A program made the position numbers and the translations under genes. A model generated the notes under the pieces. That model was not told the DNA's origin and did no database searches. It saw only the letters and a program-made list of their open reading frames with translations. Below, in pieces: positions 1,372 to 56,144 of a DNA stretch of 64,000 nt. The stretch comes from Candidatus Woesearchaeota archaeon (GTDB taxonomy: Archaea; Nanobdellota; Nanobdellia; Woesearchaeales; ARS49): positions 2,109-66,108 of the forward strand of contig JAWCRZ010000003.1 in NCBI GenBank assembly GCA_038868995.1. The letters run 5' to 3'. How positions within the stretch are numbered: position 1 is the first letter of the stretch; every line of letters starts with the position of its first letter.

Positions 1372-1405
1372 GGTTAAGTCAAGTTTCTGGTGCTGGCTGT
1401 CCGCC
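1372..1405. mobile_element. internally deleted remnant of the family-1 hairpin MITE (left terminus only)
   Basis: GGTTAAGTCAAGTTTCTGGTGCTGGCTG is identical to the left terminus of the copies at 17091 and 55747. It is flanked by the direct repeat CTTTTTAG (1364-1371 and 1406-1413). Confidence 0.6.
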
Positions 1406-1449: not shown

Positions 1450-3963
1450 ATGGACGAGTCAAAAATCAAAGAGGAAGTGCGTTTGAATGCTTCCTTGAAT
1501 CCTGAAAAGTTTTTCCCTGTTGATACGCTGAAGAAGCGAGGTTTTTCCCGTCATCAGTGCTCTAAATGCCTGCGTTTCTTCTGGTCTGTCCACAAGCAGG
1601 ATGTTTGTGGCGACCCTGCCTGTTCCGGCGGCTTTCGCTTTATTGGCCATCCTATGAAGAGGCAGCTTGATTATATTCAGGTCTGGCAGGAATTTGCGCG
1701 TATTCACAGGAAGCTTGGTTATACTCCAATAAAGCGCTATCCTGTTATAGCCCGCTGGAATCCCACAACTGATTTTACAATTGCCTCTATTGCCGCGTTC
1801 CAGCCGTTTGTGGTTTCTGGTGAAATCGCTCCTCCTGCAAATCCTCTTGTTATTCCTCAGATGTGTGTTCGGTTCCCTGATATTGACAATGTTGGCATTA
1901 CAGGTCATTGTGTTGCTTTTGTGATGATGGGCCAGCATGGCTTTTTCCCTCCAAAGCAGTATGATGTTAACAAGTATTGTGATGACCACCTGGTTTGGCT
2001 GCATGAGGGGATGGGCTTGCAGATGCAGGATATCACTGTCCATGAGGATGTCTGGGCTGGCGGAGGCAATCTTGGCCCGTGTATGGAGTTTTTCTCGAGG
2101 GGCCTTGAAATTTCCAATCAAGTGTATATGCAATATGAAATCACTTCTTCAGGATTGAAAGAGCTGAACATCAAGGTGCTTGATATGGGTCAGGGCCAGG
2201 AGCGCGTGGCTTGGTTTACTTCTGGCAAGCCATCTATTTATGAGTGTGTCTTTCCTCCGGTCATAAGGAAGATGCGTGAGGTGACTGGCGTAGAATATGA
2301 TGAAGAGTTCATGAAGAAATTCACTCCTCTTGCTCCTTATCTCAACATTGGGGAAGCGAAGGATATCAATGCTGCGTGGAAGTTTGTCGCAGACAAGCTT
2401 AAGATGGATGTTAAATCCTTGAGAGACAAAATTCTGCCGCTTGCTGCCTTGTATGCTGTTGCCGAGCACAGTCGTGCGCTTCTTTTCGCGATTAATGACG
2501 GTGGCCTTCCTTCAAATGTTGGCGGCATGTATAATTTGCGCGTCATTCTGCGCAGAGCGCTCGGATTCATTGAAAAGTACGGCTGGAAGCTTGGTTTGCC
2601 GGAGATTTGCAGGTGGCATGCTGATTATCTTGAGCCACTGTATCCTGAATTGCAGGAAAATATTGATGAAGTGTGTGAGATTCTGGATGTTGAGCGCAGG
2701 AAGTACGAGGCGACTCGTGAAAAGACAAAGTCCTTGCTGCCTCGTCTGCTTGAAAGGAAGCTTTCAACTGAAGACCTTATTACTATTTATGACAGTCAGG
2801 GAATTGCTCCTGAGCTGATACGCGATGAGGCGGCGAAAATTGGAAAGGATGTTGTAATTCCTGAGAATTTTTATGCATTGGTTGCTGCCAGGCATGAAGC
2901 AAAGGAGCAGGAGCATGCTACTGTGCGTGCTGAGTCCCTGCCTATTCCTCCAACTGTTCCGCACACCAAAGCATTGTACTTTGACGATTATGCCAAATCC
3001 TCTTTTGACGGCAAAGTCGTTGAAATCATTGGTAACAATGTCATCTTGGACCAAACTGCTTTCTATCCCACTTCTGGAGGCCAGTTGTCTGACCGCGGAA
3101 CATTGGAAGGTAGCAAAGTTGTAGATGTCTTCAAACAGGGTCCTTATATCGTTCACGTGCTTGATGGAAAACCCAAGTTTCATGCTGGAGATACAGTGCA
3201 TGGTGATGTTGATTTCGAGCGGAGGGTCCAGCTTGCCCAGCACCATACTGCTGCGCATATTATCAATGCTGCTGCCCGTGCTGTCCTTGGCCCACATGTT
3301 AATCAGGCCTCTGCGAAGAAGGATGTTGACAAGGCACATATTGACATTACTCATTATGAAAGTTTGACTGACGAGCAGCTTGAACGTATTGAAGAGGAAG
3401 CCAACAGGATTGTTCGGCAGGGCATTAAGACGAGATTGCATTTTATGCCGCGTGAAGAAGCTGAAAAGATTTATGGAATGGCTATTTATCAGGGTGGAGT
3501 TGCTCCAGGCAAGCAATTGCGTATTGTCGAGATTCCAGGCATTGATGTTGAGGCGTGCGGTGGCACTCATCTCAAGAGTACTTTGGAAGCTGGCAGAATC
3601 AAGTTGTTGAAATCATCAAAAGTAAAGGATGGCATAGTGCGTATTGTATTTGCTGCCGGTCGTGCAGCTGAGAATGTTGCCAATGCTGAGAAGCAGGTGC
3701 TTGACAAAGCTGCTGCCCTTCTTAAATGTGATGTGCATCAAGTTCCAGGCCGTGCTGCTGAGCTTTTTGAAATTTGGAAGAAGGCAAGGAAAGCATTTCA
3801 GAAAAAGCAGCCATTGCCTGACTTGACCCTTAAATCAACTGTTGCAACCGCGACTGATATCATTCAGAAGACAGCTGAAGCCCTTCAAACCCAGCCGGAA
3901 GTTGTTGTCAAGACAATTGAGAGATTCTTGGCTGACTTGGAGAAGTTCAAACTTCAACGCTGA
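1450..3963 (+). CDS. alaS: alanyl-tRNA synthetase, archaeal type
   Basis: 837 aa. The editing-domain motifs HHTAAHIINAA and CGGTHL are present, with archaeal AlaRS N-terminal architecture. Confidence 0.95.
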   Translation: MDESKIKEEVRLNASLNPEKFFPVDTLKKRGFSRHQCSKCLRFFWSVHKQDVCGDPACSGGFRFIGHPMKRQLDYIQVWQEFARIHRKLGYTPIKRYPVIARWNPTTDFTIASIAAFQPFVVSGEIAPPANPLVIPQMCVRFPDIDNVGITGHCVAFVMMGQHGFFPPKQYDVNKYCDDHLVWLHEGMGLQMQDITVHEDVWAGGGNLGPCMEFFSRGLEISNQVYMQYEITSSGLKELNIKVLDMGQGQERVAWFTSGKPSIYECVFPPVIRKMREVTGVEYDEEFMKKFTPLAPYLNIGEAKDINAAWKFVADKLKMDVKSLRDKILPLAALYAVAEHSRALLFAINDGGLPSNVGGMYNLRVILRRALGFIEKYGWKLGLPEICRWHADYLEPLYPELQENIDEVCEILDVERRKYEATREKTKSLLPRLLERKLSTEDLITIYDSQGIAPELIRDEAAKIGKDVVIPENFYALVAARHEAKEQEHATVRAESLPIPPTVPHTKALYFDDYAKSSFDGKVVEIIGNNVILDQTAFYPTSGGQLSDRGTLEGSKVVDVFKQGPYIVHVLDGKPKFHAGDTVHGDVDFERRVQLAQHHTAAHIINAAARAVLGPHVNQASAKKDVDKAHIDITHYESLTDEQLERIEEEANRIVRQGIKTRLHFMPREEAEKIYGMAIYQGGVAPGKQLRIVEIPGIDVEACGGTHLKSTLEAGRIKLLKSSKVKDGIVRIVFAAGRAAENVANAEKQVLDKAAALLKCDVHQVPGRAAELFEIWKKARKAFQKKQPLPDLTLKSTVATATDIIQKTAEALQTQPEVVVKTIERFLADLEKFKLQR

Positions 3964-9712: not shown

Positions 9713-10827
9713 AATTGGTTATTTCGACGGATTGCTTTCTGCCCCGTTGGGATGGCATTGCGCGTTATTTGTCGCAATTGTTGCCTGAGTTTGCAAGAGA
9801 TATGGAAATAACTGTCTTCGCTCCGAAATTCGAGGGCAGGGTTCCTTCATTTAAAGGGGTGAATGTTGTCCGTTTTCCATTGATTAACATCCAATTCGGG
9901 GATATTTTCTTTTGCAGTCCTGATAAGAGGTCAATGGAAAGTGCCATCGCTGCATCTGACATTGTATTCAACCAGACAATTGGTCCGGTTGGCGCTGCTG
10001 CAATCAAGATTGCAAGCAAATTGGGCAAGCCGATTGTCAGCTATATTCATAGTATTGACTGGGAGCTTGCAAGAAGGGCAGTCAAATTCAACAAAAATCT
10101 GGCTGCTTTGTACGTTAAAATGCGCGCACGGAGATTGTACAATAAATGCACACTTTTGCTCTGCCCTTCGAATGAGGTTGCAGATTTGCTTTCTCAAAAT
10201 AAGGTCAAGACGCGCAGGGAAATAGTGCATCTTGGTGTCCCGACTGAAAAGTTCTGCCCTCCTGCTTCAAAATCTGCTGCAAAGCGCAGCTTGGGCATTG
10301 ACCCTGGTTTCAAGATTGTTGGTTTTTGCGGCAGGATTGCAAGGGAAAAGGACTTGCCTACTTTGCACGAGGCTTTTCTCAAAGTTCATGCAAAGCATCG
10401 TGATACTGTGCTTTTGATTGTGGGCGAGGGCTTGGAAAGGGAGATTCCCGCTTCCCACACTGTTTTGCGCGTGGGCAGGCAGGATAATGTTGTTCCTTTT
10501 CTTCAGGCGATGGATATTTTTGTTCTTCCCAGCTTGACTGAAACTTCATCTCTGGCAACCATGGAGGCGATGGCTGTGGAATTGCCTGTAATAGTCACGC
10601 CTGTTGGCAGCATCCGCGAATACGTTGTTGACAAAAAGAACGGCTTGTTGTTTGACAGGCAGGATGTGACTGGGCTTGCTGAGAAGATTGAGTTTTTGTT
10701 GAAAAATCCGAAAATGCGCGTTGCATTGGGCAAAGCAGCAAGAAAGACAATTGTGTGTGATTATTCGTGGGAGCAGACAGTGCAGAAGATTAGGAAAGTT
10801 CTTACATCTTCAGACTTACCACGTTAG
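9709..10827 (+). CDS. glycosyltransferase family 4 (GT-B, group 1)
   Basis: 372 aa. The C-terminal half has FVLPSLTETSSLATMEAMAVELPVIVT, an E-x7-E type motif. It is coupled to the deacetylase gene by an ATGA overlap. Confidence 0.8.
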   Translation: MKLVISTDCFLPRWDGIARYLSQLLPEFARDMEITVFAPKFEGRVPSFKGVNVVRFPLINIQFGDIFFCSPDKRSMESAIAASDIVFNQTIGPVGAAAIKIASKLGKPIVSYIHSIDWELARRAVKFNKNLAALYVKMRARRLYNKCTLLLCPSNEVADLLSQNKVKTRREIVHLGVPTEKFCPPASKSAAKRSLGIDPGFKIVGFCGRIAREKDLPTLHEAFLKVHAKHRDTVLLIVGEGLEREIPASHTVLRVGRQDNVVPFLQAMDIFVLPSLTETSSLATMEAMAVELPVIVTPVGSIREYVVDKKNGLLFDRQDVTGLAEKIEFLLKNPKMRVALGKAARKTIVCDYSWEQTVQKIRKVLTSSDLPR

Positions 10828-13800
10828 ATAACCCTGTTTCCTGGTTCATGCTGACGCCGTAGAGAATATCACCTTCAGAAATTATGGCGTCGTTGTGTGA
10901 AATGACAACGTATTGTGCCTTGTTGCAATAGCTTCTGATTAGTTTCGCAAGTTTTTCGCTGTTGTGCTTGTCAAGCGCGGCGTCCACTTCGTCGAGAATG
11001 TAGAATGTTGCCGGTTCGTGCTCTTGGATTGCAAACAGGAATGCCAGTCCGGTGAGTGTTTTCTCTCCACCGCTCAAACTTCTTATATCAATAAACTTGT
11101 TGCCGCTTAGGCGTACGTTGAATTTTAGGCCTCCTGCAAACGGCTCTTCCTTGTTTTCAAGTTCAAGGTATGCTTCTCCTTTTGTTGTCAGTTGGTTGAA
11201 TATGCGCCTGAATTGTCCATCAACAGCTTGCAATGTCTTCAAGAACAGTTCTTTCTTGTTTCTTTCAATTTCATTCATCATTCCGACAACTGCATCTTTT
11301 TCTTTCAGCAGGACGTTCTTTTTCTCAAGCAATATTCCGTATTCTTTCTCCACCGTCTCATAAATCTCAAGTGCGCGCATATTGACGTTGCCTATTGTTA
11401 TAATCATTCTCTCAAAGTCAGCTATTTCCTTTTTGAGCTGTTCTTCCGGTTTTTCCATATCCAGTTCTACGCCTGAATATTGTTCGAATTCTGCATTCAG
11501 TCCAGCTGATTCTGCCTTTGCTTTTGCCTCTTCGATAGACAACAAATTGATCGTCATCTCTTCTTTTCTGCTCACTTCATCTATGTTCAATATTCTTGCC
11601 TCTTTGTCGCTTGCTTCCTTGTCAAGCTTGTTTCTTTTCTCAATTAATCCTTTGAACTGGCTTAAAAACTGCATTTGTTCTTTTTCCTTGCCAGACAGTT
11701 CTGATTCTTGCCCCGCAATAAGTTTGTTTAAATTTTCTATTTCCCCTTTGAATGCTTCTTCCTCTTTTTCCATGTCTTTTAGCAGCTTGCCCATATTCTC
11801 TTTGTCTCTGCCTAGAATATCGGTCAGCTGAACATCAATGCCTTTTTGTTCTCCTTCAATGCGTATTTTTTCCTGTTCAAGCTGTTTTCTTTTTTCTTCA
11901 AATGCATTCAGCTCCGCCAGAACTCTTGGATTCCTCAATTCAGCAATTTTGTTCCGGATGGTCTGCTTCTCAATTTTCAGGTCGGTGAGCGCTTTTGTTT
12001 CGACTGCTATCTGTTCTTCAAGCGATTCAATGTCTTTGCCTATCTGCTTGATGGTCTTGGTTAATTCTTCCTTGTAGTTTTTTGTCGCTTCCAAATCTCC
12101 TGTATCCAGATGCAAACTTTTTTCCTGTTTGATAATGTCTCCTTCTAAATTCGCCTTTAGCTCCCGCAATTTTGCTATCTTGTCCTCGTTTGCTTTTCTG
12201 TTTCTTTCAAGAGTGTTCAGTCTGTCTTCAAGCGCTGCAACCTGTTTTCTTGTGTCTTCAAGTTTGCCTTCTATTTCTTTTTCCTTGAAGCTTCCTGCTT
12301 TCTTTGCTCTGAAACCTCCTGTCATTGCTCCTGAAAGCTCACACATGTCTCCATCAAGGGTGACCATGCGTGCTTTACCGATGCCAATGCGCCGTGCTGT
12401 TTCAATATCTTCCACAATAAGCGTGTTTCCAAACACATGCGAGAATACATTCTTGAATTTTGGATCAAAATCCAGTAAATCTATGGCAAATCCGTGGACT
12501 CCTTTTTCTTTTGCCAGTTTTTTAAGTTCTTCTTTGACAGGGGTGGGCTTTATTTTGTTCAATGGAAGAAATGTCGCAAATCCAAACTTGCCTGCTTTCA
12601 GGAATTTGATTGCCTGTGCCGCTGTTTTGTCTTCGTCTACAACTATGCTGTGAATTTTCTGCGAGGCGGCTATCTCAAGCGCCAGCGCGTATTTGCTTTC
12701 CGAGCTTCCCAATTCAGAAACAGTTCCATATACTTCGCCGAATTTTTGTCTGTTCTCCAAAACTTTTTTTACAGCAATGTTTGCAGATATTTGTTCCTGC
12801 ACTGATGCCTGCTTGATGCTCAACTTGCTTTCTTCTTCTCGCATTGAGTGCAGTTCTGCCCTGCCTTTTGCGAGCGTATTTGCGTCTTTGCTGTCCTGAT
12901 TCAGAAGTTCATTGAGTTCAAGGACAATTTTCTTGAATTGTTCTTTCTTGTTCTTCAGCTCCCGTAATTCTTCTGTATGTGCGCTCTCAAGTTCTTTGAC
13001 TTTTGCTATTTTCTCGTCCATTGTTGCTATCTGGAATTCTGCCTTGTCTTTTTCGCGCACGAGTGCCTGTTGTTTTTCACGCAGTATTTGTATCTCCCGT
13101 TGTTTTTCCTCTGCTCTTTTGTCAAGTTCTTCAAATTGCTTGTCGATATCGGCATCATCCTGTAAATCATGTTTTGCCTTGAATTCCTTTATTTTTGAAT
13201 CCAGTTCTGCAATGGTTTTGCCCATTGCTTCCAGCTGTGCTGTCTGCTGTCTTTTCTGCTCGTTGAGTTCCTTTATTTTGTCATCAACTTCTTCCATGTT
13301 CTTTTGCAGCTGTTCTTTGCGCTGGCAGATTCTGTCAATTTCTGTCTTGCAGGTGCTTATGCGCTGTTTGTGCATCGCTAACTGGATTTTGAGTTGTTCG
13401 ACTTCCTTCTGGATTTTTATCTGTTCAACTTCCCCCCTTCTTTCAATTTCAGAATTTATCTCCTGTATTGTTTTTTTGCATTCTGCAATCTCGTTGCGCA
13501 ATCTTTGTATCTGCTGCTGGTATTTTGCAAGCTTTTCTTTGTGCTCTGAGCTTTTGTCCTCTAATTTTTTAAGTTCAGCATCTTTCTTGTTCAACTGTCT
13601 TTTGAGATAGCTTGCCTTGTTCTGCTTTATCTTGTCATTCAATTCTTTGTACTTCAGTGCCTGGTCCCTGTCTTTTTTCAGTTCTTTCAGGTATGATTCT
13701 CTTTCTTTCAAAATAATCTCTGCCTCGTTCAATTTCGCTCCGACTTTTTCAAGCTCATTTAGCGCTTGCTGTTTTTTCTCTTCATATATTCCAATGCCTG

Positions 13801-14356
13801 CTATTTCTTCAACAAGCTGTCTAAGTTCAATGCCGCTCATCATTACCAGCCTTGTTATATCTCCTTGCAGAATTATGTTGTAGCCTTCCGGGTTGATTTT
13901 TGCAGCACTTAATAACTCAAGTATTTCCTGCCTTGTTTTTGTCTTGCCGTTTATCTTGTATTTGCCTGTTCCGTCAGCTCTGACTATTCTTGTTATTTTT
14001 ACTTCCTCTTCCTCAATCGGGAATATTTTTTGCCTGTTGTCAAAGACAATGCTTACTTCTGCTTCTTTTGCCGGCTGTTTTGTCTTGCCGCCGTTGTAGA
14101 TTAGGTTCGCGCTTTTTTCTGCTCGCAATTGCTTTGAAGAACTCTTTCCAAGTACAAAACATAGTGCATCCAGAACGTTTGACTTGCCGCTTCCGTTTGG
14201 CCCAAGAATGACGTTGAAGTCGTCTCCAAACAGCAGTTCTGTGTATTTTCCAAAGCTCTTGAACCCGTTAAGGATTAGTTTTGTTATCTTTGTGGCTTTA
14301 GCTACTTTGGGTATTTCCGTCTCTGGTGTAGTTACTACCCCTGTTTCCATCTTCAT
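10802..14356 (-). CDS. smc: chromosome segregation protein SMC
   Basis: 1184 aa. It has the Walker A GPNGSGKSNVLDA, long Lys/Glu coiled coils, a hinge, the signature LSGGEKTLTGLAFLFA and the Walker B FYILDEVDAALD. Confidence 0.95.
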   Translation of the reverse strand: MKMETGVVTTPETEIPKVAKATKITKLILNGFKSFGKYTELLFGDDFNVILGPNGSGKSNVLDALCFVLGKSSSKQLRAEKSANLIYNGGKTKQPAKEAEVSIVFDNRQKIFPIEEEEVKITRIVRADGTGKYKINGKTKTRQEILELLSAAKINPEGYNIILQGDITRLVMMSGIELRQLVEEIAGIGIYEEKKQQALNELEKVGAKLNEAEIILKERESYLKELKKDRDQALKYKELNDKIKQNKASYLKRQLNKKDAELKKLEDKSSEHKEKLAKYQQQIQRLRNEIAECKKTIQEINSEIERRGEVEQIKIQKEVEQLKIQLAMHKQRISTCKTEIDRICQRKEQLQKNMEEVDDKIKELNEQKRQQTAQLEAMGKTIAELDSKIKEFKAKHDLQDDADIDKQFEELDKRAEEKQREIQILREKQQALVREKDKAEFQIATMDEKIAKVKELESAHTEELRELKNKKEQFKKIVLELNELLNQDSKDANTLAKGRAELHSMREEESKLSIKQASVQEQISANIAVKKVLENRQKFGEVYGTVSELGSSESKYALALEIAASQKIHSIVVDEDKTAAQAIKFLKAGKFGFATFLPLNKIKPTPVKEELKKLAKEKGVHGFAIDLLDFDPKFKNVFSHVFGNTLIVEDIETARRIGIGKARMVTLDGDMCELSGAMTGGFRAKKAGSFKEKEIEGKLEDTRKQVAALEDRLNTLERNRKANEDKIAKLRELKANLEGDIIKQEKSLHLDTGDLEATKNYKEELTKTIKQIGKDIESLEEQIAVETKALTDLKIEKQTIRNKIAELRNPRVLAELNAFEEKRKQLEQEKIRIEGEQKGIDVQLTDILGRDKENMGKLLKDMEKEEEAFKGEIENLNKLIAGQESELSGKEKEQMQFLSQFKGLIEKRNKLDKEASDKEARILNIDEVSRKEEMTINLLSIEEAKAKAESAGLNAEFEQYSGVELDMEKPEEQLKKEIADFERMIITIGNVNMRALEIYETVEKEYGILLEKKNVLLKEKDAVVGMMNEIERNKKELFLKTLQAVDGQFRRIFNQLTTKGEAYLELENKEEPFAGGLKFNVRLSGNKFIDIRSLSGGEKTLTGLAFLFAIQEHEPATFYILDEVDAALDKHNSEKLAKLIRSYCNKAQYVVISHNDAIISEGDILYGVSMNQETGLSNVVSLKM

Positions 14357-14396
14357 TTTTGGTATATTTAGGGTATATAAAGACTGTGGTAGAAAG

Positions 14397-14530
14397 GCTG
14401 TATTGAAAAGTTTTCAATGGGCCCTGGTCTCACAGCGTGAGACTTCCTTTTTTCCTCGCCTGCGCAGGGGAGAAAAAAGGAACCTTGGCTTTGCCAGGGC
14501 GGGGTCTGCGCTGAACCTTTCAATACAGCC
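14397..14530. mobile_element. family-2 hairpin MITE (134 bp) with 9-bp target-site duplication
   Basis: The termini are GCTGTATTGAAAAG and CTTTCAATACAGCC, forming inverted repeats. It is flanked by GGTAGAAAG at 14388-14396 and 14531-14539. Its core is homologous to family 1. Confidence 0.75.
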
Positions 14531-14539
14531 GGTAGAAAG

Positions 14540-14549
14540 TTATTTAAAG
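14540..14549 (+). promoter_or_regulatory. TATA-like box for the parvulin gene
   Basis: TTATTTAAAG is centred about 26 nt upstream of the ATG at 14571 and directly abuts the MITE duplication. Confidence 0.45.
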
Positions 14550-14570
14550 CCTATATTTGGCGCTACAGTT

Positions 14571-14852
14571 ATGACATCTAAAGTACACGCGGCGCATATT
14601 CTGGTGAAAACTGAGCAGGAAGCCTTTGGTTTGCTCTATGACATCAACCACGGCAAAGACTTTGCAGAAGTTGCCAAAGCCAAATCCCTCTGCCCTTCCG
14701 GCAAAAATGGCGGAGATTTGGGCTGGTTCGGCCGCGGCATGATGGTCAAGGAATTTGAACAAGCTGCCTTCGCAATGAAACCAGGAGAACTTTCAAAGCC
14801 GGTCAAAACACAATTCGGCTGGCATATTATTAAAGTGATGGAAGTTAAGTGA
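14571..14852 (+). CDS. parvulin-type peptidyl-prolyl cis-trans isomerase (PpiC)
   Basis: 93 aa. The sequence MTSKVHAAHILV...GGDLGWFGRGMMVKEFEQAAF...QFGWHIIKV matches the parvulin pattern. The longer track ORF (14184) runs through the MITE and is rejected. Confidence 0.85.
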   Translation: MTSKVHAAHILVKTEQEAFGLLYDINHGKDFAEVAKAKSLCPSGKNGGDLGWFGRGMMVKEFEQAAFAMKPGELSKPVKTQFGWHIIKVMEVK

Positions 14853-15762: not shown

Positions 15763-15773
15763 CTTTGCCTGCG

Positions 15774-15898
15774 GGTGCTGTCAACTTAATGGTGCCGCGC
15801 TGGCCTGACTTTTCTTCTCCCCTTGCAAGTGCGGGGTGAGAAAAGTCATCTCGGCAACGTCGAGGCAGCGCGGCCAGCACCAGAGAGTTGACTTAACC
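15774..15898. mobile_element. family-1 hairpin MITE (125 bp) with perfect 9-bp target-site duplication
   Basis: It runs GGTGCTGTCAACTTAATGGTGC...CACCAGAGAGTTGACTTAACC and is flanked by TTGCCTGCG at 15765-15773 and 15899-15907. Confidence 0.85.
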
Positions 15899-15911
15899 TT
15901 GCCTGCGAAAT

Positions 15912-17080: not shown

Positions 17081-17090
17081 GTTTGCTCAG

Positions 17091-17232
17091 GGTTAAGTCA
17101 AGTTTCTGGTGCTGGCTGGCCGCTCTGGTCCTCTGGACTCATTTTTCTCTCCTCCTCGCAGGTGCGGAGGAGAGAAAAATGACCTCAGCGAAGCTGAGGC
17201 TGAGCGGCCAGCACAATTAAGTTGACAGCACC
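17091..17232. mobile_element. family-1 hairpin MITE (142 bp) with perfect 9-bp target-site duplication
   Basis: It runs GGTTAAGTCAAGTTTCTGGTGCTGGC...GCACAATTAAGTTGACAGCACC and is flanked by TTTGCTCAG at 17082-17090 and 17233-17241. The central 17-bp stem is perfect. Confidence 0.9.
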
Positions 17233-17244
17233 TTTGCTCAGTAA

Positions 17245-20472: not shown

Positions 20473-22406
20473 AAAAGCTTCTTATGCTGCTGTTACTGGT
20501 CCCGCTGGTCCTCGCCCAACCGACTGATTGGTTTAAGGCGGGCTTGGTTAAGACGAGGATGGAAGCATCCTCTGTTATTGAATTGCAACCGCGCGGACCA
20601 AATCCTTTTGTTGAGTCAATCCGGACAGACGTTATTTTTGTTCCTCAAAACTCCGAGTTTTCTGCTGTGAGGAGTTTTGATGCGACACCTTCTGCCATTG
20701 CCACTGGCGATCGTGTCCGGTTTGAATGGCGCGCTCCGCAGATAGGAAAATTGTCATACAAATACCAGGCAATTGTTGAAACCGCTAATAATGCTCCAAG
20801 GGTTGCTGCAAAGATTCCATATCCTTTTAAAGTGCCTCCTAATCTTGAAAAGTATGTCAAACCTACACAAAATATTGATTCTAACAATCCAAAGGTGTTG
20901 GGTCAGGCGTATGCCTTGGCACAGGGTGAGGATGACTTGTTTTTGTTGGTAAGCAAGATTGCAATATGGACCAAGAATAATGTTAGGTATAACCTAAGCA
21001 CGCTGACGGCTGATGTTTCCCAGCCGGCCTCCTGGGTGCTCGAAAACAGGTATGGTGTTTGTGATGAGATTACCGGCTTGTTTATTGCTATGCTGCGTGC
21101 ATTGAAGATTCCGGCAAAATTTGTTTCTGGCATTGCATTCACCAATTCTGTTGAGTTTCCGCAAGGGTGGGGCGCGCACGGCTGGGCTGAGGTGTATTTT
21201 CCTGGTGTTGGCTGGGTTCCTTTTGACCCTACTTTCGGTGAATATGGCTGGGTTGACCCGAGCCATATCAAGCTGAAGGAAAGTTTTGATCCTCAGGAGC
21301 CGACTACTGTGTTTGAATGGAAGGCGCGGGATGTCGATGTCAGGGTTGAGGACTTGAAGCTGGGCGCTGAGAAAATCGACCAGTCGGGCAGTGTGCCTTT
21401 TGAGCTTAAGTTGTCTGCCGCTCCGTTGAGGCCGCGCGTTGGCTTTGGCAGCTTCAATGGTGTTGTCCTGAACATTGAAAATCTTGCTGACTATTATGTT
21501 GGGGCTGAGTTCAGCTTGTCTCGGGTTACTGATATGACTATTCTTGACGGGGAATCAAAGCAGATTGCCCTGCCTCCGAAAGGGCGTGGACGTCTGTTTT
21601 GGAAGGTGAAAGTGCGGGAAAATCTTGACCCGCATTTCCAGTATGAACTGCCGATTCGCATTTACACAATTAGGAATGATACTGTTGAGACCGCGTTTGG
21701 AGTTGGCCAGTGGGATATCGTGTTTTCGCAGGCGGACATAGATACTGAAATAACCAGGCTTTCGGCAACCCAGCGCGATCCGTTGCAGTTGGCGTGCGTG
21801 CTGAAGGATGACATGATTTGGGATGATGTTGGCAGGGTTGATTGCCTTGTACAAAACAAGGGAGAAAAAGAGCTTCCTGTGAAAGTGTGTTTTGGGCAGT
21901 GCCGTGAGGCGATTGTTCCAGGTAATTCAAACTTGCCTGTATCCTTTGACATTCCAATGCCAGGCCCTGGCCAGAAGGAAGTTGTTGTGACTGCTTCTTC
22001 CGGTGACTTGGAGAAAAAGGCAGTGCTCACCTTGGTGCGCTTGGAAGAGCCGCGCATTGCCATTAAGGATATATCATTGCCTGAGCGCATCCTGTACGGG
22101 GATACTTTTACTTTGCTGTTCACTTTGTCGCGTGAAAGCATCTCGCTTCCTGAAAACGTCACTGTTAATGTCGAAGGTGGTGGAGCAAAGGCAAAAGTTG
22201 AGGTTGGTGACCTTTTAATCGATCAGGAAGTGCACGTCAACATCCGCTCTGACCAGTTGTATTCCGGTAATCCGTTGTTTGACATTGATGTTACGTATCA
22301 GGATCCATTCGGCCAGCAGTATCACGAAAGCGCTTCTGCTTCCACATTTGTTTCAGATGTGCCATGGTATAAGCGTTTCCTCGGCTGGTTTATTGACCTC
22401 TTTTGA
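20469..22406 (+). CDS. secreted transglutaminase-like domain protein
   Basis: It has a signal peptide. The transglutaminase core is YGVCDEITGLFIAMLRALKIPAKFVSG...HGWAEVYFPGVGWVPFDPT, giving the Cys-His-Asp triad. It overlaps pyrH by ATGA. Confidence 0.8.
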   Translation: MKKLLMLLLLVPLVLAQPTDWFKAGLVKTRMEASSVIELQPRGPNPFVESIRTDVIFVPQNSEFSAVRSFDATPSAIATGDRVRFEWRAPQIGKLSYKYQAIVETANNAPRVAAKIPYPFKVPPNLEKYVKPTQNIDSNNPKVLGQAYALAQGEDDLFLLVSKIAIWTKNNVRYNLSTLTADVSQPASWVLENRYGVCDEITGLFIAMLRALKIPAKFVSGIAFTNSVEFPQGWGAHGWAEVYFPGVGWVPFDPTFGEYGWVDPSHIKLKESFDPQEPTTVFEWKARDVDVRVEDLKLGAEKIDQSGSVPFELKLSAAPLRPRVGFGSFNGVVLNIENLADYYVGAEFSLSRVTDMTILDGESKQIALPPKGRGRLFWKVKVRENLDPHFQYELPIRIYTIRNDTVETAFGVGQWDIVFSQADIDTEITRLSATQRDPLQLACVLKDDMIWDDVGRVDCLVQNKGEKELPVKVCFGQCREAIVPGNSNLPVSFDIPMPGPGQKEVVVTASSGDLEKKAVLTLVRLEEPRIAIKDISLPERILYGDTFTLLFTLSRESISLPENVTVNVEGGGAKAKVEVGDLLIDQEVHVNIRSDQLYSGNPLFDIDVTYQDPFGQQYHESASASTFVSDVPWYKRFLGWFIDLF

Positions 22407-22534
22407 GAGTCAAGTTTCTGGTGCTGGCTGCTCTTGTCCTTTGGACTCATTTTTCTCTCGCAGGTGAGGAGGATAGAAAAATGACCTCGGCGAAGCTGAG
22501 GCAGAGCGCCCAGCGCCATTAATTTGACAGCGCC
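22407..22534. mobile_element. family-1 hairpin MITE (128 bp, left tip shortened)
   Basis: It runs GAGTCAAGTTTCTGGTGCTGGCTG...CCATTAATTTGACAGCGCC. The flanks CTCTTTTGA (22398-22406) and CTCTTCTGA (22535-22543) match at 8 of 9 positions. Confidence 0.75.
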
Positions 22535-22546
22535 CTCTTCTGATAA

Positions 22547-29793: not shown

Positions 29794-29830
29794 GAGGCAG
29801 AGCGGCCAGAACCATTAATTTGACAGCACC
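29794..29830. mobile_element. right-arm fragment of family-1 MITE
   Basis: GAGGCAGAGCGGCCAGAACCATTAATTTGACAGCACC aligns with the right arms of the copies at 22407 and 55747. No matching left arm or duplication was found. Confidence 0.6.
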
Positions 29831-29842
29831 GTCCGATAGAAA

Positions 29843-29855
29843 CCTTTTTAAATGG
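29843..29855 (+). promoter_or_regulatory. TATA-like box for aIF5A
   Basis: CCTTTTTAAATGG is centred about 28 nt upstream of the ATG at 29877 and 12 bp after the MITE fragment. Confidence 0.45.
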
Positions 29856-55702: not shown

Positions 55703-55746
55703 GGAAGGAAGCAATTATCGCTCATTTAAAAATTTTTTTAATCCAC

Positions 55747-55871
55747 GGTTAAGTCAAGTTTCTGGTGCTGGCTGCTCTTGTCCTTTGGACTCATTTTTCT
55801 CTCGCAGATGCGGAAAAATGACCTCGGCAAAGCCAAGGCTGAGCGGCCAGCACCATTAAGTTGACAGCACC
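55747..55871. mobile_element. family-1 hairpin MITE (125 bp) with perfect 9-bp target-site duplication
   Basis: It runs GGTTAAGTCAAGTTTCTGGTGCTGGCTG...CAGCACCATTAAGTTGACAGCACC and is flanked by TTAATCCAC at 55738-55746 and 55872-55880. Confidence 0.9.
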
Positions 55872-56144
55872 TTAATCCACAGTCAGCAATTCGTCCAGTT
55901 CTTTCTGCCATAGGGCGATTTGCTGGTTGATAATCTTGAGTATTAGGTTTATGTTTACTTTTTGGAAGGGGATTAGAATGTTTGCTTCAAATTTGAGTTT
56001 GAGGTCATGGTCGGCGAGCAATGGAAGTATTGCCTTGAGGTCGTCTGTGTTTTGGAATCATCTTTTCATCAATGCGCGGAGGGTATCTATTTGTTCTTGT
56101 ATGTCTGCTGGTGACTTTGTTGGGTAGCGGACATTTGTTGTCAT
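55872..56144 (-). pseudogene. 90-codon reading frame interrupted by one in-frame TGA (possible decayed small gene)
   Basis: Reverse frame gives MTTNVRYPTKSPADIQEQIDTLRALMKR*FQNTDDLKAILPLLADHDLKLKFEANILIPFQKVNINLILKIINQQIALWQKELDELLTVD. The TGA is at 56058-56060. The terminal TAA lies inside the MITE duplication. Confidence 0.25.

Follow-up and report, generated by a model that had tools for sequence, protein, structure and literature searches.

A 134-bp MITE between divergent smc and parvulin promoters in a Woesearchaeota-like DPANN genome shares its interior plan, and not its ends, with a co-resident element family

The spacer between the divergent smc and parvulin genes of this archaeon (214 bp) is occupied by a short non-coding insertion that is, by structure and by behaviour, a MITE. 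We refer to it as F2, to set it apart from the more abundant elements of family 1 (F1) in the same DNA; its own status as a multi-copy family is unproven. What is less ordinary about the pair is that one interior plan occurs with two unrelated sets of ends, and that the insertions keep a fixed spacing to TATA boxes. The reading that we favour, with a confidence only a little better than even, is that F2 is a MITE mobilised in trans by a DDE-type transposase of its own, and that its interior is related to that of F1 and amounts to a back-to-back terminator-like module. To our knowledge, mobile elements of Woesearchaeota, whose genomes are tiny, have so far only been counted in bulk surveys.

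The preliminary description of this DNA had placed a 134-bp element at 14397-14530, with inverted termini and a perfect flanking repeat, GGTAGAAAG, and each of these statements held up. The boundaries are supported by a repeat finder and by the empty sites in two relatives (L001 and L005) that are described below, and the inverted arms are 17 nt long and complementary at 16 of 17 positions. From 14388 to 14539 the layout is GGTAGAAAG / GCTGTATTGAAAAGTT ... AACCTTTCAATACAGCC / GGTAGAAAG; the tips are GGCTGTATTGAAARGTT, and the end pair reads GGCTGTATTGAAA...TTTCAATACAGCC (Table 1). When the whole window, that is, the entire 64-kb stretch of DNA that was analysed, was scanned for any segment of 50-600 bp with terminal complementarity of at least 12/14 and an exact flanking repeat, F2 was the sole match, and 30 composition-matched shuffled windows gave 0. 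The 134 bp have no capacity to encode a transposase, their reading frames being spurious only. Folded as DNA, the element reaches -36.5 kcal/mol (z = -6.1 versus shuffles), with a predicted outer stem and three hairpins. Compared with tRNA and Rfam covariance models it gave no match, sub-threshold miRNA-hairpin noise alone being returned, and an RNA gene or a tRNA-derived element was accordingly rejected as its identity.

Table 1. Coordinates of F2, its parts and its surroundings, and of the F1 copies in the window (TSD, flanking duplication; TIR, inverted terminus).
Feature	Coordinates	Strand	Remarks
F2 element	14397..14530	+	134 bp; 135 bp as 14396-14530 under symmetric parse; non-coding
Left TSD copy	14388..14396	.	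GGTAGAAAG; direct repeat 100%; 8 bp GGTAGAAA if G14396 assigned to element
Right TSD copy	14531..14539	.	GGTAGAAAG; direct repeat; single copy in empty sites
Left TIR	14396..14412	+	GGCTGTATTGAAAAGTT; repeat finder, 17 nt, 94% complementary
Right TIR	14514..14530	-	reverse complement GGCTGTATTGAAAGGTT; repeat finder
Small hairpin A	14427..14443	+	GTCTCAC-AGC-GTGAGAC, then directly TTCCTTTTTTCC; terminator-like on + strand
Long T-tract/A-tract hairpin	14444..14482	.	T6 14448-14453, A6 14473-14478; part of F2 closest to F1 core
Small hairpin B	14483..14499	-	CCTTGGC-TTT-GCCAGGG; on - strand precedes TTCCTTTTTTCTCC
smc	10802-14356	-	1184 aa SMC
smc TATA box	14374..14381	-	TTTATATA on - strand; conserved in L001 and L005
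Parvulin TATA box	14541..14548	+	TATTTAAA; conserved in L001 and L005
Parvulin PPIase gene	14571-14852	+	93 aa, parvulin-type prolyl isomerase
F1a	1372..1405	+	34-bp left-end remnant; CTTTTTAG on either side
F1b	15774..15898	.	interior inverted relative to ends; TSD TTGCCTGCG
F1c	17091..17232	+	full copy; TSD TTTGCTCAG; closest match to F2 interior
F1d	22407..22534	+	TSD CTCTTTTGA/CTCTTCTGA (22398-22406, 22535-22543)
F1e	29794..29830	+	right-end remnant, 37 bp; F1 end match
F1f	55747..55871	+	TSD TTAATCCAC

One base at the left boundary, G14396, has a double role, being both the final base of the 9-bp repeat and the first base of a symmetric terminus, GGCTGT...ACAGCC. If the 8-mer GGTAGAAA is taken as the duplication, F2 becomes a symmetric element of 135 bp, and if the 9-mer is taken, the left tip is one G short. 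Because both parses give the identical ancestral sequence on removal of the element, 8 and 9 bp are undecidable from one copy of F2. The proposal that F2 makes a duplication of the same 9 bp as family 1 thus stands for F1, which has perfect 9-bp repeats and unambiguous GG...CC tips in three copies, whereas for F2 the length is 8 or 9 bp.

This genome carries archaeal-type TTTAWATA boxes about 20-25 nt before start codons, and the target of F2 was the gap of about 16 bp separating two divergent TATA boxes. The duplication has spared both boxes, as well as the bases immediately before each of them. The best matches to the parvulin are 91% identical, the nearest named homologues being from Candidatus Woesearchaeota, and in the contigs of relatives fetched for these homologues the synteny around the gene is kept. 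In two of them, L001 (a JGI metagenome contig of 95 kb) and L005, the spacer reads ...GACTGT GGTAGAAAG GTATTTAAA..., with one repeat and no 134-bp segment; the context of this empty site is ...GGTATATAAAGACTGT GGTAGAAAG GTATTTAAATG..., and the flanks otherwise align base for base. The uninterrupted site with a single GGTAGAAAG in L001 and L005 means that F2 is a true insertion. We also observed that a frame at 14184-14852 is open across all of F2 and runs in frame into parvulin, so that a false N-terminal extension is possible in annotation. In more distant relatives, L003 (9582-10001) and L006 (9550-9999), the smc-parvulin spacer holds an extra ORF of 139-149 aa without a Pfam match, which is missing from the window, L001 and L005.

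F1 is represented in the window by four full copies (F1b, F1c, F1d and F1f) and two end remnants (F1a and F1e), with ends GGTTAAGTCAAGTTTCTGGTGCTGG / GGTGCTGTCAACTTAATGGTGCTGG and tips GGTTAAGTCAAG... and GGTGCTGTCAAC... (Table 1). Empty sites for F1b and F1d are present in the relatives L003 and L006. Neither F1 nor F2 termini were found in the relatives' loci, which indicates that both elements were recently active, and in this lineage only; the called genes of those loci include none with a transposase domain. The F1a remnant, lying between two copies of CTTTTTAG, may have arisen by internal deletion or be the footprint of an excision. F1d inserted into the handful of bases that separate the stop codon of an upstream gene of 645 aa from the promoter of the gene that follows, and its TSD includes this stop codon. 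Three contigs from the same strain (L027, L028 and L029, Logan SRR27730035) are 100% identical to the window. Set against window positions 22434, 1398 and 55843, four of their six contig ends fall inside F1 copies; the assembly breaks at non-repeat sites too.

Our comparison of the ends bears out the view that the F2 termini are unrelated to those of family 1: GG alone is in common, and of 5000 shuffles about 3100-3400 align equally well. A degenerate F1 end pattern run over the window gave no match on F2. Likeness to insertion sequences outside this genome was sought as well. IS903B, of the IS903 group in the IS5 family, has ends GGCTTTGTTGAATAAATC and a 9-bp duplication (PMC10569121). The F2 tip is identical to this end at 12 of 18 positions (GGCT-T-TTGAA-A), with 106-439 of 5000 shuffles as good, and the F1 right end resembles an IS1-family end to a degree equalled by 78 of 5000 shuffles (p 0.016), both comparisons having been chosen after the fact, and the p-value for IS903 being uncorrected for the choice. 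The duplication of F2 agrees with that of the IS903 group at 9 bp if the maximal repeat is taken, but is 8 bp under the symmetric GG parse. Nor is the IS903 target motif, WTTYA-N9-TRAAW (PMC2577343), matched at F2, the flanks ACTGT and TTATT of this single site agreeing with it at 2/5 and 3/5 positions. As assignments to transposase families, both are weak, and IS903 for F2 and IS1 for F1 were rejected at these values (p ~0.02-0.09 and 0.016), and we retain them as leads.

That F2 belongs to a family, as the preliminary description had it, was not upheld. The 64 kb of the window and a further 2.1 kb contain one copy of F2 and eight copies or remnants of F1 (1 to 8), no further F2 termini were found in the window with 3 mismatches allowed, and the collections searched contain none; nor did these searches bring up a cognate transposase or an autonomous element. 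A pattern with both F2 termini occurred 0 times in 185,579 species genomes; BLAST searches with F2 of plasmid and phage collections gave no match; and its concatenated six-frame peptides, meant to pick up copies annotated as spurious ORFs, found nothing at E <= 10 among 5.8 billion proteins. Patterns of F1 and F2 gave only single-seed chance matches, in unrelated viruses, when run against viral contigs. One JGI metagenome match, L009, was considered as a second F2 and rejected: the inverted repeat there continues outward beyond the matched part, the sequence between the arms is unrelated to F2, and the contig looks eukaryote-like. F2 is therefore an orphan in all the DNA searched, an outcome which had been named beforehand as counting against a second family; with 66 kb of host DNA, however, it is not decisive. 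A 20-mer of F1 likewise gave single-seed chance matches in unrelated bacteria when run against genome contigs, with no F1 outside this strain, and since F1 is equally absent from the collections, which lack the repeats of this lineage, the negative result for F2 is weak.

What F2 does have in common with F1 is the plan of its interior. As single-stranded DNA, F2 and the four full F1 copies take the identical fold (z -4.9 to -10), a cloverleaf whose outer stem is built from the termini together with GC-rich subterminal segments and closes a junction with three abutting hairpins. In both F1 and F2 the junction runs from a small GC hairpin through a long T-tract/A-tract hairpin to a second small GC hairpin, an order by which each strand comes to have a GC hairpin followed by T5-6. 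Support from covariation is thin, the RNAalifold analysis having 5 sequences and MAFFT having mis-registered the T-tract. Hairpins with perfect 9-bp arms containing TTTT number exactly five in the window, namely that of F2 and those of the four full F1 copies, and the same census of 70 kb of the relatives found none.

The interior had been described as homologous to the F1 core, with the proviso that its similarity should be compared with shuffled controls, and the controls differ in what they support. In local alignments with the F1 copies, F2 exceeds its own dinucleotide shuffles (z up to 5.1; 0-14 of 1000 shuffles as good, with the best orientation taken for each copy). When the cores are aligned globally and the controls are shuffles with unchanged three-hairpin layout and arm composition, z falls to 0.1-3.8, and from 7 to 939 of 2000 shuffles are as good. 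The strongest signal under this layout-preserving control is hairpin B, CCTTGGCTTTGCC-AGG, which is identical at 16 of 17 positions to the F1f hairpin when the latter is reverse-complemented. We also built an empirical null from the real sequence, comparing the F2 interior with every 160-nt window of the 64 kb on both strands. With colinear scoring, the full F1 copies take the first four places among 1588 windows, none of the 1550 background windows scores as high as even the lowest of them, and the alignments of F2 with F1 span 50-70 nt. The part of the earlier proposal that stands is thus the specificity of the resemblance, which beats dinucleotide shuffles and the real background alike; homology is unproven, as the similarity, hairpin B excepted, is mostly not above that of shuffles matched in layout and composition. 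The core resemblance is specific and above chance and resides mainly in architecture and composition, and with one F2 copy descent and convergence of the two interiors are inseparable.

Within F1 itself, interiors and ends are separable. The ends of F1b match those of other F1 copies at 89-100% when flipped, versus 58-68% unflipped, whereas its interior matches theirs better unflipped (66-69% versus 53-62%). A second copy of the F1b type lies at 1-85 of contig L028, 2.1 kb past the left edge of the window. Recombination or template switching across the F1 inverted repeats is a simple mechanism for such a flip of the interior. The idea that modules are exchanged between elements receives indirect support from this two-copy subfamily, in which interior and ends face opposite ways, as far as rearrangement goes, but a common descent of F1 and F2 is undemonstrated.

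A possible role of the shared core as a bidirectional terminator or insulator is something that we infer only from the order of its hairpins and T-tracts. Runs of 5-6 T are efficient sites of termination for archaeal RNA polymerase (PMC2253867). A terminator scan detected the + strand of F2 (14426-14444, with the tail TCCTTTTTTC) and both strands of F1c; on the - strand of F2, hairpin B and TTCCTTTTTT were missed because of one A.C mismatch in the stem. Runs of T5+ occur at 22% of native gene 3' ends in the window versus 12% of background, a weak enrichment. At the F2 site itself a terminator would have nothing to stop, as transcription from the promoter on either side is directed away from F2.

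In the reading that we favour, F2 is a non-autonomous MITE-type DNA transposon whose insertion between the divergent smc and parvulin promoters left a staggered-cut duplication of 8-9 bp. A DDE-type transposase that recognises GGCTGTATTGAAA ends would have mobilised it in trans, and this enzyme would presumably be distinct from the one that moves the more abundant co-resident F1. The interiors of F1 and F2 would, most likely, be related by descent or through reshuffling of ends and interiors. The feature conserved between them may be the back-to-back terminator-like module, which would stop transcription arriving from either side, and promoter-adjacent insertions could thereby be harmless or insulating.

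Other readings of the same evidence have to be set beside this one. F2 may be a one-off relic, the product either of a single insertion by a larger autonomous element whose interior was later lost in place or of a single accidental mobilisation. We doubt this but consider it possible, given one F2 beside eight F1 in the same DNA and the lack of a match in any collection or peptide search; the absence says little, however, when F1 too is without matches outside the strain, and an intact TIR (16/17), a perfect TSD and a compact cloverleaf like that of F1 resemble a finished MITE and not a random deletion. Convergence strikes us as somewhat unlikely. F1 and F2 would here be independent, for example internal deletions of different insertion sequences that had hairpin and T-tract terminators facing inward, and would be alike solely through a favoured functional or structural design. 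Consistent with such independence, structure-preserving shuffles largely absorb the sequence similarity, the termini are unrelated, and hairpins A and B differ between the families, except for hairpin B and F1f. Against it, no other locus in the 64 kb ranks as high as the four full F1 copies, with which F2 aligns colinearly over 50-70 nt, hairpin B agrees with the reversed F1f hairpin at 16/17 positions, and neither the window nor the 70 kb of relatives holds other such hairpins that might serve as an independent source.

A further alternative concerns the function of the core. It may be palindromic for the sake of transposition, a foldback or cruciform pairing the ends for the transposase, or hairpin-templated repair may have produced it as a by-product; in either case the T-tracts would be incidental. 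The whole element is indeed a near-perfect foldback with a strongly negative z in both families, the long hairpin is prone to indels in its apical parts when F1 copies are compared, and the local evidence for termination at T-tracts is weak. We nevertheless hold this to be unlikely, in that tracts of T4-6/A4-6 are retained in every copy while the tip of the long hairpin varies, and a separate GC hairpin precedes each T-tract on its own strand, which foldback alone would not need. It is highly improbable, finally, that the core resemblance reflects shared T-rich low complexity and nothing else. A background locus at about 58.2 kb does score equally under strict local scoring, by way of a 16-nt GGAGAAAAAAGGA run, but under colinear scoring no background window attains the level of the F1 copies, and both the confinement of the T-tract hairpins to F1 and F2 and their identical three-hairpin junction speak against it.

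The position of the insertions relative to promoters was examined at both families of sites (1364-1413, 15765-15907, 17082-17241, 22398-22543, 29794-29851 and 55726-55880, and 14374-14548 for F2). Each of the six F1 sites has a TATA-like 8-mer whose start is exactly 5 nt away from the duplication, and F2 lies 6 nt from the smc box on its left and 1 nt from the parvulin box on its right, all insertions thus falling within 1-6 nt; among random intergenic positions in the window, 0.8% stand at exactly 5 nt and 4% at 1-6 nt from the same TATA pattern, which was defined after the data had been seen. The boxes are the host's, as they are present at the empty sites, and both orientations of the elements relative to them occur. 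The pattern suggests that the elements either target the DNA immediately before BRE/TATA or are subject to very strong survivorship. Where spacers are very short, survivorship accounts for some of the spacing, but some of the sites are in spacers of 200-500 bp. A bolder version, which we put forward as speculation and judge decidedly unlikely, would have two transposase specificities and one terminator cloverleaf, with both elements aimed upstream of TATA boxes under the guidance of promoter-bound TBP/TFB or of the DNA distortion that it causes, and a selected insulator core that makes the insertions tolerable in a very compact genome. TATA-guided integration of F1 and F2 would be an archaeal counterpart of Ty3 targeting through TFIIIB.

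Among known systems, F2 compares most directly with F1: it has the same cloverleaf and GG...CC tips, was inserted a few nt from a TATA box and is missing from close relatives, but its terminal 17-25 nt are unrelated, its TSD is perhaps 8 and not 9 bp, and its TATA spacing is 6 or 1 nt as against 5. Like other prokaryotic MITEs, those of the archaea Sulfolobus and Haloquadratum included (PMC11602168, PMC10969869), it is small, non-coding, intergenic and strongly structured and has a TIR and a TSD; unlike them, it has a single known copy, and the searches brought no parent insertion sequence to light. With 7 MITEs, remnants included, in its 64 kb, the window has a density of about 109 per Mb, which matches the high value of 105 per Mb given for 'a Woesearchaea genome' (PMC11602168). 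We found no published description of F1 or F2 elements. The GC hairpin directly before a T-run on the + strand of F2 recalls SPRITE, the terminator-like dispersed repeats of bacteria (PMC10969869). Those repeats are bacterial, however, whereas F1 and F2 combine two convergent modules with TIR and TSD in an archaeal host, and their putative terminators are to be seen in the light of T-tracts alone being able to terminate in archaea (PMC2253867). The Correia elements of Neisseria, which undergo inversion (PMC10969869), are likewise MITEs concentrated just upstream of genes, and their inversion parallels the flipped interior of F1b, but their TA duplication, their promoters and their IHF sites have no counterpart seen in F1 or F2.

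For the biology of this lineage, the empty sites prove that DNA transposition took place recently in this Woesearchaeota-like genome of the DPANN group, and the F1 repeats fragment short-read assemblies of the organism. If more copies of F2 exist, the pair of F1 and F2 would show that interiors and ends of MITEs evolve or are exchanged separately, and would offer a candidate mobile bidirectional terminator in archaea. Of greater importance still would be the location of the insertions beside TATA boxes, provided that targeting, and not survivorship, lies behind it.
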